Assembly (NCBI GenBank): GCA_963809485.1
Contig: CAWEJX010000015.1
Location: forward strand, 64,001 to 128,000
Direction of reading: 5' to 3'
From: an uncultured Acidobacteriota bacterium
GTDB lineage: Bacteria > Acidobacteriota > UBA6911
DNA length: 64,000 nt
In this document: in pieces, positions 286 to 59,760 of the stretch
How positions within the stretch are numbered: position 1 is the stretch's first letter
How the letters are laid out: each line of letters begins with the position of its first letter
The notes under the pieces: generated by a model
Database searches by the model: none
The model's input: only the letters and a program-made list of their open reading frames with translations
What the model was told of the DNA's origin: nothing
Made by a program: the position numbers and the translations under genes

Positions 286-405
286 GTGAGGACGGGTCTC
301 CAGATCGCGTACGCAGAGTTAAGCTAAAACTTATTGGTCACCCAATCGGTCTACGACTGTCGCGAGATCCTCGCGAAGTATTGAAGATTGGAGATCCGTG
401 CTCAC
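286..405. repeat. Inverted pair of REP-like sequences
   Basis: GTGAGGACGGGTCTCCA (286-302) faces TGGAGATCCGTGCTCAC (389-405), 2 mismatches; related copies at 35809, 46429 and 46767. Confidence 0.7.
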
Positions 406-475
406 CAGGAAGCCCATAATTTTATTTTGAAAACCGTCTAGTTCGTGGCATGGTTTTAGTTTGCGGAAATTTGCC

Positions 476-968
476 ATGGACGACGAACTGCGCAGCATCC
501 TTATGAAAAAGGCTGGTGCGATCCTCGCCCGGCGCGCCTACAGCCGGGGAGAATTGCGCAACAAGCTTGCCAAAATTGCCGGTGAAACGCTCGGTGGAGG
601 AAGTCCTGGACCGCCTCGAACAGGTGAACCTTCTCAACGACCGGGAATATGCGTATAATTTCGCCCTTCATCGGACCCGGCAGGAGGGATGGGGACCGGC
701 GAAGGTGCTCGATTCCCTGCTCCGGCGCCATGTGGAACCGGAAATCGCCGAATCGGCTCTAAAACGTGTGCGCGACGAAGTCGATCAGGCGTCCATTCTG
801 GCCGATTACGCCCGGAAATATTTCGGCAAAAGCGCCCCCGACGCGAAGCAGGTCCGCAAACTGATCGCGCACCTGCACCGGCGCGGTTTTGCGGAGGACA
901 GCATACTGGACGCGCTGAGACGCGTGGTCCCCGCGGCGCTCATGCAACGCTATGAAACAGGAGAATGA
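476..968 (+). CDS. recX: Regulatory protein RecX (frameshifted near 590, probably a sequence error)
   Basis: ORF 461-658 has [18 protein letters not shown] 516-968 continues with [19 protein letters not shown] and LHRRGF; directly upstream of alaS. Confidence 0.85.
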
Positions 969-969
969 A

Positions 970-3610
970 TTGACAAGCAGCAATCAGATCCGTGACGCAT
1001 TCCTGAAGTACTTCGAGCGCAACGGGCACAAAGTCGTGCCCAGCTCCTCCCTGATTCCCTTCAACGATCCCACGCTCCTGTTTACCAACGCGGGCATGAA
1101 TCAGTTCAAGGACATCTTTCTGGGCAACGAAACCCGTCCCTACAAGCGCGCCACGACCAGCCAGAAGTGCATGCGCGTAAGCGGAAAGCACAACGATTTC
1201 AAGGACGTCGGACACTCCATCCGCCACCACACTTTTTTTGAAATGCTGGGCAATTTTTCCTTCGGCGATTACTTTAAGAACGACGCCATCCATTTTGCGT
1301 GGGAAATGCTGACGCAGGAATACGGCCTCGACCCGGCCAGGCTGTGGATCACCGTGTTTCGCGAAGACGACGAAGCCTGGGACATCTGGCACAACACAGG
1401 AAAACATCCCGGAAAGCAGAATCATGCGCCTGGATGAAAAAGACAATTTCTGGGCAATGGGCGACACCGGTCCGTGCGGCCCCTGCTCCGAGGTGCATTA
1501 CGATTTCGGCAAGAGCCCGATCCCCGATCACGGCGAATGCGACCTTACGTGCTCCTGCGGCCGCTGGGTTGAAGTCTGGAACCTGGTTTTCATGCAATAC
1601 AACCGGGATTCCGGCCGCACGCTGAATCCGCTCCCCTCCCCATCGATCGACACGGGAATGGGCTTCGAGCGTCATTACCACCATCCTTCAGGCCAAAACC
1701 TCCAACTACGACACGGACATTTTCCGGCCGCTCCTGGACGAGATATCCAATATCTCAAACACCGATTACGGGGCGGATCCCAACGATGATGTCTCGATGC
1801 GCATTATTGCCGATCATGCGCGCGCGGCCACCTTCGTCATAGGCGACGGCCAGTACCCCGGCAACGACAAGCGCGGATATGTCTTGCGAAAAATCATGCG
1901 GCGCGCCATGGTCCACGGAAAGAGGCTGGGAATCGACGAGCCCTTCATATACCGCGTATCGGGGGCCGTGGTGGAAATCATGAAAGGAGCCTATCCCGAA
2001 CTTGTTCAGGCGCGGGAAACCATCGCGCGCGTCATCAAGCAGGAAGAGGACTCCTTCGCGGGCACTCTGGGCGAGGGATTGAAGGATTTCAACGAACGCG
2101 TCCGGAAGATCAAAGCCGCGGGCGGCCGCACGCTGCCCGGCGAAGAGGCGTTCTTCCTGTACGACACTCGCGGGCTGCCGCTGGAAATCATCGAGGACCT
2201 GGCGCAGGAAAACGGGCTCGTGGTCGACGAAGCGGGATTCACCAAAGCCTTCGAGATGCAGCGCGAACGCTCGCGCCGGGATTACCAGATCCGGCAAAGT
2301 GCGCGAAGAAGTTGCCCAGGCTCTGTTCGAGGGGAAAACCAGCTTCGTGGGATATGGGATCGAGGGCGCGTCGCGGCAACTATCCAGGCGATTATGGTGG
2401 ACGGCGAGACGGGCGGAAAGCATCGAGGCCGGCCAGAAAGGCGAAATGGTTCTGGATGCTACTCCTTTTTATGCGGAATCCGGCGGGCAGGTCGGCGATA
2501 CCGGCTATATGGCCGGAGGAGACGCCCGCGCCAGGGTCACCGACACCATTTATCGCGGCACAACCATCACACACCTGGTGGAGATGGAATCCGGATCCCT
2601 CCAGGTGGGAGACTCAGTAGAGGCGCGCGTCGACCTCGAAAAACGCAGCCTCACGATGAAGAACCATACGGCAACCCACCTGCTGCAGGCCGCCTTGCGG
2701 AAGGTGCTCGGACCGCATGTAAAGCAGGCCGGTTCGCTGGTGGCGCCGGACCGCCTGCGTTTCGATTTCACTCACTATGCCCCTTTGACTGCCGCCGAAA
2801 TGCGCAGGATTGAGGACATCATCAACGAGCAGATCTGGCGCAATGTCGCCTGTGGACACCCAACTCATGGATCTGGATCACGCGATGAAGTCGGGCGCCA
2901 TGGCTCTTTTCGGTGAAAAATACCAGGAAAAAGTCCGCGTGGTCGAGGTTCCGGGATTCAGCAAGGAGCTTTGCGGCGGCACCCACGTGCCCGCTACCGG
3001 CACGATCGGCCTGTTCAAAATTACGGGCGAAGGGGGCATCGCCGCCGGCGTGCGCAGGATCGAGGCCGTGACCGGCCCTGCAGCGTTCGCCCGTTTCCGC
3101 TCGGGAGAAGAGATTCTTGACTCCATCCAGGCCGATAACAAAATTGCCCGCCATGAGGTGCCTGCGTGGATCGACCGGCTGCAGGCGCAAATGCGCGACC
3201 TGCAACATCGGATTCTCGATCTGAAAACCCAGGCGGCGCGCGCCAATATCAGCGGCATGCTGGAACGGGCACGGGAGATAGGCGGCATCAAGGTGGTTGC
3301 CGATACGCTCCCGGAAATGGACCGGGCAGGCCTCCGCAACCTAGCCGACGAGCTTAAGCATAAAATCGGTTCGGGCGTCGTCGTGCTCGGGAGCCCCCAG
3401 GAGGAAAAGGTTGCCCTGGTGGTCATGGTCACCCCCGATATCTGCCAAAAAATCCCTGCCGGCAAGATTATCAAACAGATCGCCCCCCTGGTCGGCGGAG
3501 CGGGCGGGGGCAAGCCGGAGCTGGCCGAAGCAGGTGGTAAAGATTCCTCCCGGCTGGCCGATGCAATAAAGTACAGCTATACTGTCGTGGAAAGCCTGTT
3601 GCGAGCCTGA
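970..3610 (+). CDS. alaS: Alanine--tRNA ligase (split by about six indels, probably sequence errors)
   Basis: Motifs [79 protein letters not shown] and [12 protein letters not shown] spread over five ORFs; TTG start at 970 after GGAGA. Confidence 0.95.
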
Positions 3611-3614
3611 AGTT

Positions 3615-3769
3615 TTGGAGGAGTTACGCCGGTCTTGAACGCTGAAGCACGCTGAACGGACGCCGACCCACGCCGACAAAAATTTATATATTTTTTCAGC
3701 GTACGTCAGCGCTTCAAAATATGGAGCTGTCAAACTCTTTGAGTCCCCCGGCAGAGCCGGGGGTTTACC
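3615..3769 (-). mobile_element. Truncated non-autonomous element with an IS200/IS605-like left end and CGCTGAC hairpin cargo
   Basis: Minus strand reads GGTAAACCCCCGGCTCTGCCGGGGGACTCAAAGAGTTTGACAGCTCC...CTCCTCCAA, nearly identical to the element at 23169; right-end hairpins absent. Confidence 0.75.
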
Positions 3770-58873: not shown

Positions 58874-58892
58874 GGAGCCTTCTGACTTTATT

Positions 58893-58938
58893 GTCAGCGT
58901 ACGTCAGCGCTCATCGGCGTACGTCAGCGTTAAAATTT
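58893..58938 (+). repeat. 3' half of the 90-bp element between convergent genes
   Basis: GTCAGCGTACGTCAGCGCTCATCGGCGTACGTCAGCGTTAAAATTT. Confidence 0.8.
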
Positions 58939-58958
58939 CCGCGATAAGCTACTATCCT

Positions 58959-59621
58959 TTATGCCATCTCCAACACCTTCGCCACCAGCTTCTCCGCTCC
59001 CTCCCCCACTTCCTTAATGCTCTGCGCCAGCATATAGCACGGCGTTGTGACGATCTTGTTCTTCTCATCCACAACAATCTCGTTCACCTGCGCGTTCTTA
59101 TGCTTTGCGCCCATCTTCTCCATGGCAGACGCAGTCCCGGGATCGGTCCCGATGGTGAGCTCAACGCCAAAGTCCTTGCCAAACAACCGCGCGATTAGCG
59201 CCGGAGCGATGCAGAGCGCGCCGATAGGCTTCTTCTGTCGATGCATCTCGCCAAGCAGCCGGGCGACATCCTCGTCGGCCTTGCAATCCGTGCCATCCAT
59301 GGCGAAGGTGCAGAGGTTTTTGGCGGATCCGAAACCGCCGGGTATGACAATGGCGTCCAGATCGGCCGCCTTGACCGTTTTTACGTCTTTGATATTCCCC
59401 CGGGCGATGCGCGCCGCCTCGACCATAGCGTTGCGTTTTTCCGCAACCGGCTTTTCGGTGATGTGGTTTACGACATCGTGAAGATCCTTGTCGGGCGCCA
59501 TACAGATGTATTCGGCGCCATGTTTATCGAGAAAATAGAGCGTGAGGGTCGCCTCGTGAATTTCGCTGCCGTCTTTGACGCCGCAGCCCGCCAGCAGAAC
59601 GCCGACTTTTTTCTTAGCCAT
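58959..59621 (-). CDS. elbB: Glyoxalase ElbB (DJ-1/ES1 family)
   Basis: GCGVKDGSEIHE, EAARIARG, PGGFGSAKNL, CIAP, TTPCYM. Confidence 0.93.
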   Translation of the reverse strand: MAKKKVGVLLAGCGVKDGSEIHEATLTLYFLDKHGAEYICMAPDKDLHDVVNHITEKPVAEKRNAMVEAARIARGNIKDVKTVKAADLDAIVIPGGFGSAKNLCTFAMDGTDCKADEDVARLLGEMHRQKKPIGALCIAPALIARLFGKDFGVELTIGTDPGTASAMEKMGAKHKNAQVNEIVVDEKNKIVTTPCYMLAQSIKEVGEGAEKLVAKVLEMA

Positions 59622-59671
59622 AACGCCTCCTTTAATCTTTTCCCCGAATTAAACCAAAATCCTCCCTCAAT

Positions 59672-59760
59672 CAACATTAACTGATGAGAAAATATTATTT
59701 ATATAAAATTTTTCAGCGTGCGTCAGCGTTTATCGGCGTACGTCAGCGTTAAAATTAATG
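59672..59760 (+). repeat. Copy of the 90-bp element just left of the IS
   Basis: CAACATTAACTGATGAGAAAAT...TCAGCGTGCGTCAGCGTTTATCGGCGTACGTCAGCGTTAAAATT. Confidence 0.88.

Follow-up and report, generated by a model that had tools for sequence, protein, structure and literature searches.

Tandem heptamers are known from cyanobacteria as short tandemly repeated repetitive (STRR) sequences, whose original definition includes a heterocystous cyanobacterium as host, and non-autonomous bacterial repeats resembling miniature inverted-repeat transposable elements (MITEs) include Correia/NEMIS, RUP and Nezha. Here, we compared such systems with the gene-less hairpins and arrays of short tandem units that occupy intergenic gaps in a 64,000-nucleotide stretch of an uncultured Acidobacteriota genome (contig C15, positions 64001–128000; hereafter, the window). 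The finding combines known kinds of element: cassettes of the type seen in ribosomal intervening sequences (IVSs), MITE-like derivatives and STRR-like repeats.

The IVS of Coxiella burnetii is a PF05635 (IVP) open reading frame (ORF) in a stem-loop excised by RNase III, for which the accessible text gives a 28-bp stem and describes no periodicity (PMC4990558). IVP genes have also been noted within cas loci (18, e.g., between cmr3 and cmr2; PMC3936711), and IVP ORFs in rRNA insertions of Candidate Phyla Radiation (CPR) bacteria (bioRxiv 10.1101/2024.02.27.582315). Separately, Aklujkar et al. (2009) described paired tandem 7–9-mers on opposite strands and at variable distance in G. metallireducens, absent from G. 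sulfurreducens, and interpreted them as possible IHF/HU sites (PMC2700814); MacGregor (2015) described intergenic TAACTGA repeats in Beggiatoaceae, Cyanobacteria and Bacteroidetes (PMC4679880); and Rehm et al. (2015) described GGGNATC repeats in Xanthomonas and Nostoc (PMC4692102). Published readings of short-period repeats comprise translational regulators, G-quadruplexes and IHF/HU sites (PMC4679880, PMC4692102, PMC2700814). Like the window arrays, these repeats have units of 7–9 nt in 2–40 copies, are intergenic and lineage-specific and occur in several phyla; the AGGGATT array of the window resembles the GGGGA(C/T)T type of Nostoc (PMC4692102). In the accessible literature, we found no link of such repeats to cassettes carrying IVP or GxxExxY (PF13366) genes, no reading of them as emptied cassettes, and only incidental mentions of GxxExxY.

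We found that the window hairpins have the design of small gene-bearing cassettes located elsewhere in the same genome (G000; 6.04 Mb, 21 contigs, estimated contamination of 7.3%). PF05635 matched two genes and PF13366 one, on contigs C1, C8 and C7 and outside the window, in keeping with the original prediction, made from the window sequence, that neither gene type occurs within it. Inverted tandem arrays flanked all three genes (3/3), as follows.

Contig C1, gene at 517165–517554: IVP cassette, (TAGTGGT)n(TAGGGAT)n, gene, (ATCCCTA)n(ACCRCTA)n.
Contig C8: IVP cassette with arms of CCAGTT/AACTGG heptamers.
Contig C7, gene at 765102–765527: GxxExxY cassette, (NNNACGCTGA)4-AAAAA, gene, TTTTT-(TCAGCGTNNN)4.

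The arms of the GxxExxY gene are ACGCTGA/TCAGCGT decamers, identical to the decamer of 14 window loci, and the loops of the empty hairpins match the inner borders of this cassette, which carry an A-run with TATA at one side and a T-run at the opposite side. Unit, polarity and A-run/TATA/T-run loop are common to the empty hairpins and the cassette. Among the heptamers, the AGGGATT unit found in the window at 31828 recurs in the C1 IVP cassette, where it makes up the inner arms. By eye, a degraded ORF resembling a four-helix bundle was found as a fourth case between TGACGAT/TGACGAA arms (C20:906184-906571), and this unit is a member of the most abundant heptamer group; tblastn with the three cassette proteins, at E values of up to 1, returned only the three known genes and did not detect the C20 ORF. 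We read the window hairpins as ORF-less derivatives and decaying relics of small cassettes, to which we assign a probability of roughly 60%; in its full form, such a cassette would consist of one short gene, encoding an IVP four-helix bundle or a GxxExxY nuclease, between two inverted tandem-unit arms.

This design is closest to that of the 23S rRNA IVSs of Coxiella burnetii (helix 45), Leptospira and others, in which, as for both IVP genes here, a PF05635 gene stands between stem-forming terminal inverted repeats; those IVSs show ORF decay and a sporadic distribution that suggests horizontal spread. Unlike them, the window copies are ORF-less (no PF05635 match) and lie between protein genes, and unlike in the Coxiella IVS, the arms consist of tandem 7–10-nt units and a second, unrelated family (GxxExxY) shares the design. 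Tandem Repeats Finder (TRF) detected no array in the 23S gene of this genome (C20:198423-201436), whose match was ~90 nt longer than the model, with two small expansions in the displayed part of the alignment.

In the GxxExxY protein, residues G26, E29, Y32, D68, E78 and K80 were invariant in 33/33 sequences. Its structural model (predicted local distance difference test, pLDDT, 86.7) matched generic PD-(D/E)xK nucleases, the best match being Cas4 SSO0001 (E 3.9e-4; template modelling, TM, score 0.5), and Hjc resolvases reached only E ~0.02; a sequence search retrieved no relative of solved structure. On the basis of the model, the protein has a predicted PD-(D/E)xK nuclease fold, which does not imply a specific activity. 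Copies of the window decamer were therefore found to bracket a candidate enzyme with invariant D68, E78 and K80, an arrangement the original prediction had considered.

The original prediction had also stated that such arrays flank four-helix-bundle and GxxExxY genes in other genomes, and this held beyond G000. We surveyed a genus set of 30 genomes including G000 (relatives are given G numbers, such as G006), calling arms where inverted arms scored above 20 shuffles and taking as the period the best self-match among periods 5–12. An IVP gene was present in 23/30 genomes, and 23 of 27 IVP loci (two more had flanks that were too short) had inverted arms, with a period of 7–8 in 21/23. GxxExxY genes were present in 12/30 genomes; inverted arms flanked 16 of 20 loci (one more too short), with a period of 9–10 in 13/16. 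In other phyla, including Chloroflexota, Bacteroidota, Cloacimonadota and Nitrospirota, 32/38 GxxExxY loci (one too short) had inverted arms, and the period was 9–10 in 30/32. Arm period tracks gene family, at ~7–8 nt with IVP and ~9–10 nt with GxxExxY; by this rule, the window 9-/10-mers are therefore GxxExxY-type and the 7/8-mers IVP-type. The GxxExxY arm units across phyla were variants of one core (ACGCTGA, ACGCGGA, ACGCAGA, ACACGGA), and the CACGAAA unit of the window (42372..42440) is similar to the GxxExxY-type arms of relatives. The closest relative of the GxxExxY protein was from an Acidobacteriota metagenome-assembled genome (MAG; 67% identity). Among the heptamers, CCAGATT formed the arms of IVP genes in G005 and G010, and empty hairpins of this unit occupy gaps in G010 and G018. 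An IVP gene in G040 has 8-mer arms (ACGTGCTA) that, by eye, resemble the AACGTGCC/AACGTTTT array at 51997–52081 of the window, a resemblance that may be a weak lead to a cassette of the AACGTT family.

Genome-wide, TRF gave 2448 merged arrays at a score of at least 30, of which 419 had a period of 7 and 498 a period of 10. The tandem 7-nt units in non-coding DNA (window loci 19726, 31828 and others) are an STRR-like trait; unlike for STRR sequences, the host is not a heterocystous cyanobacterium, given the non-phototroph genes of the window and the Acidobacteriota MAG closest for GxxExxY. An inverted partner lay within 2 kb for 243/934 stronger arrays, and among these 243, 99 arms (not elements), representing 83 distinct hairpins, had their partner at a distance of under 40 nt; direct-repeat partners this close numbered 11. 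The decamer pattern CAGCGTNNNTCAGCGT had 452 genome matches vs 0 for a reversed control, and a looser pattern had 900 (grouped into 503 loci) vs 7. Although coding sequence covers 65% of the genome, only 40/503 decamer loci had their midpoint in crude coding sequence. The order was left-ACGCTG, right-CAGCGT at 65 decamer loci and the opposite at none. Over 12 unit families with at least two arms, hairpin arms had one polarity per family in 53/53 cases, a count that may include both arms of one hairpin, so that the independent number is about half.

BLAST aligned 32 near full-length copies of a 95-bp decamer element at 77–100% identity; the dispersed copies have non-repeat flanks and loops in common, and across all 32 the right arm is well kept, including in copies with a decayed left arm. 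With these 32 copies and the 503 decamer loci, the family is short, non-coding and multicopy with inverted ends, as in MITEs, with which it also shares an intergenic location and copy bursts in single lineages. Unlike MITEs, it has no transposase-bearing parent that we could find, and its ends are periodic arrays rather than unique terminal repeats. Side by side with these copies, we noted sigma-70-like promoter matches in decamer-element loops, reading into the right arm (50531-50559, 45462-45489, 59671-59698 and 8831-8802); these are consensus matches only, for example TTAACT-17-TATAAT (10/12), and may be the leftover promoter of a lost ORF. At C7:251438-252241, decamer-element matches recurred every ~117 bp (seven), which is a tandem array of whole hairpins and the sole locus of the form RFRFRFRFRF.

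Plain microsatellites born through slippage, without mobility or gene link, would account for the differing unit numbers of G000 and G006 at a shared locus and for one metagenome contig with a different array at 51978–52049. The fixed polarity (65 vs 0; 53/53) and the common non-repeat flanks and loops of dispersed copies argue against independent birth through slippage, and the same units flank genes while the reversed control is nearly nil (7 vs 900); we regard this origin as highly improbable.

We then mapped the arrays within the window, using a gene map built from Pfam-supported ORFs and inspecting a printout of every gap between mapped genes. TRF returned 46 rows of short-period arrays, mainly of periods 7, 8 and 10, and 19 of the 30 gaps of at least 30 nt held at least one array of 7–10-nt units, bearing out the claim that many gaps are occupied in this way. 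Seventeen of the originally listed loci had short-period arrays in TRF (8821, 15498/15540, 19726-19903, 21403, 21881, 23226, 30995, 31828, 31987-32143, 35726, 40357/40435, 42380, 50563, 51958-52081, 54575, 58893 and 59713); the arrays at 3637, 11677, 27111, 38161 and 45459 were under the TRF score, yet evident in the printed gaps. Position 286, given as the start of the series, holds no tandem-unit array; the sequence there is similar to the inverted repeat that bounds a ~170-bp composite element. Arrays began at, or at most 3 nt past, a stop codon at 8777 (crp), 27110, 42372 (galK) and 50529 (HAD). Twenty loci were folded, each against 100 dinucleotide shuffles, and the resulting z scores are given with the features below.

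3637..3722: CAGCGT-decamer hairpin in the alaS–SLT gap, beside one end of a ~300/400-bp repeat; z −4.9.
8777..8860: decamer hairpin directly past the stop codon of the crp-family gene; z −7.7.
11676..11725: lone right-type decamer arm upstream of ftsY; z −1.2.
15488..15577: decamer element upstream of valS, left arm decayed; z −2.1.
19724..19903: 180-nt hairpin of GTTGAAC/GTGGAAA 7-8-mers occupying the entire gap from the fmt stop to the rsmB start; minimum free energy −91 kcal/mol, z −11.6.
21400..21450: left AACGTT 8-mer arm in the def–aroC gap, with its inverted partner at 21876-21925.
21462..21872: ~400-bp multicopy repeat (MITE-400) between the AACGTT arms, with decamer units near both ends.
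21876..21925: right AACGTT 8-mer arm in the def–aroC gap.
23222..23345: long decamer hairpin of 6 + 4 units within a short MITE-400 form (23139-23440); z −9.1.
27110..27187: decamer hairpin filling the gap past the CDP-alcohol transferase gene; z −3.6; G006 contigs stop on either side.
30995..31016: three TTCGAGA units, no hairpin, z +0.9; class membership doubtful.
31826..32145: (AGGGATT)n at 31828-31902 and (ATCCTYTG)n at 31987-32143, imperfectly complementary and ~85 nt apart; z −2.5.
35681..35765: ~95-bp decamer element, among the 32 near full-length copies, left arm decayed and right arm of four units; z −0.7.
38140..38195: degenerate decamer-like hairpin between dnaJ and dnaK; z −2.7.
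40350..40490: AACGTT 8-mer hairpin upstream of dnaK; z −4.8; a G006 contig stops just before it.
42372..42440: CACGAAA 9-mer hairpin 3 nt past the galK stop codon; z −7.8.
45450..45520: short copy of the decamer element; z −2.0.
50529..50612: ~95-bp decamer element from the first base past the HAD gene stop codon; z −0.1.
51955..52085: long self-complementary AACGTT 8/16-mer array; z −5.8.
54535..54615: decamer element in the gap separating the E1 dehydrogenase gene from the NAD-GDH gene; z −2.8.
58885..58935: lone right-type decamer arm past the NAD-GDH gene; z −2.8.
59668..59752: copy of the ~95-bp decamer element, located between divergent genes; z −0.8.

The genes around these features have a Gram-negative, non-phototroph content: recX, alaS, an amidase gene, a crp-family gene, pabB/C, ftsY, valS, bamD, rpe, rsmB, fmt, def and aroC, together with mlaEFD, lolCDE, rodZ, dnaK, dnaJ, galK, two Ser/Thr kinase genes and those for an E1 dehydrogenase, NAD-GDH and a DDE transposase. 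In this map, alaS (window 952-3610) was broken into four consecutive ORFs and a MatE transporter gene (61910-63317) into two, which are either assembly indel errors or pseudogenes. Rfam at gathering thresholds returned only two tRNAs in the window and assigned the hairpins to no family. A CRISPR array, defined by 23–50-nt repeats with unique spacers, was rejected in view of head-to-tail units of 7–10 nt free of spacers. Integron attC sites were likewise set aside; no integrase occurs in the window or in two annotated dense regions, and no dedicated integrase search was made.

Folding was strong at eight of the 20 loci (3637, 8777, 19724, 21400, 23222, 40350, 42372 and 51955; z −4.4 to −11.6) and moderate at seven (z −2.0 to −3.6). 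The other five (11676, 30980, 35681, 50529 and 59668) fold no better than shuffles and consist of one arm alone or of copies in which the left arm has decayed. The original description of mostly inverted blocks is thus only partly right and overstated; TTCGAGA, with three units only, is not a hairpin. A scan for intrinsic terminators (a G+C-rich stem with a T run, restricted to loops of 3–8 nt) gave 66 sites vs ~69 expected; none matched the arms of the eight strong hairpins, and three small sub-stems overlapped weaker loci. Genome-wide, the 83 strict hairpins lay in tandem (47), convergent (24) and divergent (11) gaps and once within a gene, against a background of 2138 tandem, 705 convergent and 700 divergent gaps in a crude map of 3564 ORFs.

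These data bear on whether the hairpins are host elements acting in place, as terminators or attenuators, mRNA-stabilising stems or arrays of IHF/HU sites. Such a role would suit the near-exclusive intergenic location (40/503 decamer loci with their midpoint in crude coding sequence), the arrays that begin at stop codons, the mild enrichment in convergent gaps (24/83 vs 705/3543) and the Geobacter pairs, which the accessible text interprets as sites of global regulators (PMC2700814). Terminators, however, were no more frequent than expected and absent from the strong hairpins, and 11/83 strict hairpins lie in divergent gaps; the comparison with relatives also speaks against host elements.

The gene order rpe–rsmB–fmt–def–aroC–mlaE was kept in all 14 relatives compared (14/14), and orthologous gaps were variable among relatives, being empty or holding other unit families, so that these loci are not fixed, as a mobile origin had led the original prediction to expect. 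The fmt–rsmB gap was 25–52 bp and array-free in 7/14 relatives; fillings in others included a GAATTCA-type heptamer hairpin (G015) and a different 356-bp inverted repeat (G010). The def–aroC gap measured 57–246 bp in relatives vs 609 bp here, and three relatives had arrays of AAACCTG, GAAGGTTT or CCAGATT in it. Five sites were aligned with G006, which is ~90% identical in the flanking genes, and two of the five had different fillings. At the crp 3′ junction, G000 has the decamer hairpin and pabB/C and G006 an AACGTT 8-mer array; the pabB/pabC fusion (8815-10698), flanked on its 3′ side by the decamer hairpin, is situated between crp and ftsY, where G006 has only 39 bp. In the HAD/AAA gap, the 95-bp element of G000 stands against an unrelated 51 bp. 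Upstream of valS, G006 also has other sequence, and upstream of ftsY the decamer arm is conserved at ~90%. The alaS–SLT hairpin is common to both genomes, with differing unit number and sequence, and its inner left units in G000 pair with right units that survive only in G006; across these alignments, arms decay unevenly. At five further window loci, G006 contigs stop. The decamer pattern had 452 matches in G000, 91 in G006, 26 in G015 and 0–2 in each of the other 27 genus genomes. Gap occupancy therefore differs among relatives, and families expand in single lineages. This non-conservation argues against host regulatory sites, for which neither gaps that are empty or otherwise filled in relatives, nor uneven arm decay, nor a decamer family all but missing from 27/30 genus genomes would be expected; we consider host elements quite unlikely.

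Metagenome contigs from four runs, at a likeness of at least 90%, were short and mostly stopped at repeats. One contig from a ~93% alike population spans 54405–54779, bridging the decamer element at 54535..54615. Contig joints from 54591 to 58914/59733 were rejected as cross-matches between repeat copies. No RNA run was listed as carrying window 50000–59900.

Much of the decamer copy number is linked to other repeats. MITE-400 has 106 copies of at least 300 nt across the genome, at 78–100% identity; one decamer array of the MITE-400 type (C20:197982-198020) is found immediately downstream of the 5S rRNA gene in the rRNA operon. Out of the 503 decamer loci, 276 lie in or beside MITE-400 copies, 45 in the ~170-bp composite, which is bounded by an inverted repeat, and the remaining 182 are stand-alone loci; the abundance of the decamer thus owes much to hitch-hiking. 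MITE-400 orientation followed local GC skew in 86/106 copies (genes do so in 52%) and was unrelated to the strands of flanking genes, which suggests replication-strand-specific insertion, known for IS200/IS605 elements and a trait typical of elements of the repetitive extragenic palindromic (REP)/IS200/IS605 type. MITE-400 ends, compared with the flanks of the four Y1_Tnp genes, gave no high-scoring segment pair and no local alignment of score 22 or more.

Nesting was found in two forms: MITE-400 between AACGTT arms, and decamer hairpins within MITE-400 and the ~170-bp composite. Larger ORFs between arms were mostly ordinary genes with a separate hairpin in each adjacent gap. Such observations, together with empties far more numerous than filled forms, could be taken to mean that the hairpin is the primary mobile or self-generating unit and that IVP and GxxExxY genes and the ~400-bp repeat are passengers inserting into loops, since ordinary genes can lie between the arms of neighbouring hairpins. 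Hairpins of that kind would predict neither the period rule (7–8 nt for IVP, 9–10 nt for GxxExxY) nor the ACGCNGA-type core of GxxExxY arms across phyla, and samples of genomes without either gene had no typical hairpins. We therefore give a hairpin-first origin little probability. As a separate observation, a zinc alcohol dehydrogenase gene (C11:3252-4425) lies between single inverted AATTCGT/CGAATTA heptamer arms (C11:3220-4457), the left arm stopping at the ribosome-binding site and the right side being duplicated in tandem; it may be a true single-arm case, an ordinary gene captured as cargo.

Stand-alone decamer loci cluster at C7:700–800 kb (32/182), surrounding the GxxExxY gene at 765 kb, which also fits the cassette reading. 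The arrays might be seen as working binding sites of a resident IVP or GxxExxY protein, hundreds of them depending on one gene, in a regulatory or chromosome-organising network rather than as relics. Direct recognition is suggested by a unit period that tracks gene family, and the right arm kept over 32 copies despite left-arm decay points the same way, although recent common descent can explain that conservation. Against such a network, unit families far exceed the genes in number (TRF lists well over ten different heptamers, vs 2–3 IVP genes), occupancy turns over fast, and G006, G018 and G037 have arrays but no PF13366 match. On balance, we consider a binding network unlikely. The same three genomes, with decamer or 9-mer hairpins and no PF13366 match, do not favor the original suggestion that the hairpins are acted on in trans. 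The hairpin-dense regions of C7 and C8 both hold ordinary core genes; of the contig-end adjacency queries for C7/C8, one had no match and the other matched many paralogues. Near the C7 gene itself (C7:764600-766000), both arms were translated as C-terminal tails of convergent flanking ORFs (...LTLTYADRTPTHAEKQKIY and ...NNADAR), and the NADAR tail recurred on another ORF beside a C8 hairpin.

Several observations weigh against the reading of the hairpins as emptied and decaying cassettes. No filled and empty pair was found clean at near identity, the changed G006 sites showing replaced fillings, and no clean empty site appeared in the metagenome contigs (four runs). No target-site duplication was evident in the aligned copies and G006 comparisons, in which a clean empty site to define the ends was lacking. 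The claim of empty mobile cassettes thus stands for the design shared with filled cassettes, and no sign of movement was seen. None of the IVP/GxxExxY cassettes contains a known transposase; the filled forms carry an IVP or a PD-(D/E)xK nuclease. In this genome, the AACGTT and TTCGAGA families had no cassette. Gene and repeat were also uncoupled in relatives: G006 (91 decamer matches) and G018 and G037 (hairpins of the 9-mer CACAGATT) had no PF13366 match in assemblies that are 84–98% complete, and G007, G002 and G035 had GxxExxY genes with related arms and only 1–2 matches to the decamer pattern. A second cluster of 34 stand-alone loci at C8:600–680 kb had no GxxExxY gene, and decamer loci inside MITE-400 or the composite may be passengers whose number owes nothing to a cassette. 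The five loci that fold no better than shuffles and the crudeness of the period estimate count on the same side. Finally, hairpins were sampled in ~135–200 kb from each of six genomes: the neither-gene genomes G014, G017 and G031 had 3, 1 and 0 hairpins (4 in 495 kb), GC-rich, coding-like and atypical, and the gene-bearing genomes G018, G037 and G012 had 14, 9 and 4 (27 in 600 kb) with typical units. This contrast agrees with the cassette reading, yet it compares only three vs three kin genomes and is confounded by assembly (70–110 vs 1–20 contigs).

For emptied cassettes, the link to the gene-bearing forms is supported, and we infer their mobility and its mechanism as follows. Empties would arise through loss of the ORF between the arms, and filled and empty forms would land preferentially at gene junctions or in existing hairpins, which would account for the nesting of elements and for sites whose filling differs. 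The cassette protein, by acting on the periodic arms of its own cassette, would probably promote spread; in the GxxExxY case, it may cleave a site that is then copied from a donor, filled or empty, the arms providing homology. In RNA, the arms could form a long stem cuttable by RNase III, by analogy with the 23S rRNA IVSs, and such a stem would make insertion between stop and start codons tolerable to the host. As relics, the hairpins would serve no dedicated host function. A widespread class of selfish, fully protein-driven cassettes would go further, with unit length set by the protein (~7 nt for IVP, ~10 nt for GxxExxY), arms used for copying into gene junctions and doubling as an RNase III-cleavable stem, and insertion harmless even in operons and rRNA; we put this forward tentatively, as possible and clearly less probable than the relic origin itself.

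A link to Y1/RAYT transposases, which the original prediction had included, failed for the tandem-unit hairpins and held for a separate REP-like repeat of the window. Like REP/REPIN-RAYT systems and the IS200/IS605-derived palindrome-associated transposable elements (PATEs), the tandem-unit hairpins are hairpin-forming intergenic repeats; unlike in REP/REPIN-RAYT systems, they flanked none of the four Y1_Tnp loci examined (0/4), one of which has a different REP family. REP-like clusters of ~300 bp (window 6716-7015 and 46440-46790) contain the hairpins GGCCGCGTAGCGGCC, CCGTCGCG..CGACGG and GGCCTTTTAAGGCC; the cluster at 6716-7015 is missing from the same G006 site, where the flanks overlap by 8 bp. 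The same motifs flank a Y1 (RAYT-like) gene at C15:225627-225971. These clusters have the appearance of an ordinary REPIN/RAYT system and are separate from the tandem-unit hairpins.

In practical terms, the hairpins break short-read assemblies, as at the G006 contig ends, and extend called ORFs into arms. In core operons (def–fmt–rsmB, dnaK–dnaJ), hairpins of up to −91 kcal/mol are wedged between stop and start codons. The period rule predicts which protein pairs with which repeat, and it presents two small proteins with obvious candidate substrates, their own arms. If the hairpins are emptied cassettes, a large share of the non-coding DNA here (19 of the 30 window gaps) and in many bacteria would be the debris or offspring of one cassette type, and several repeat families described in print as regulators, quadruplexes or sites for nucleoid proteins would be emptied cassettes. 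Should the protein-driven class also prove true, 23S intervening sequences, STRR-type heptamers, TAACTGA and GGGNATC repeats and the Geobacter sites would be one phenomenon, and the 30-year-old IVP family would gain a function.

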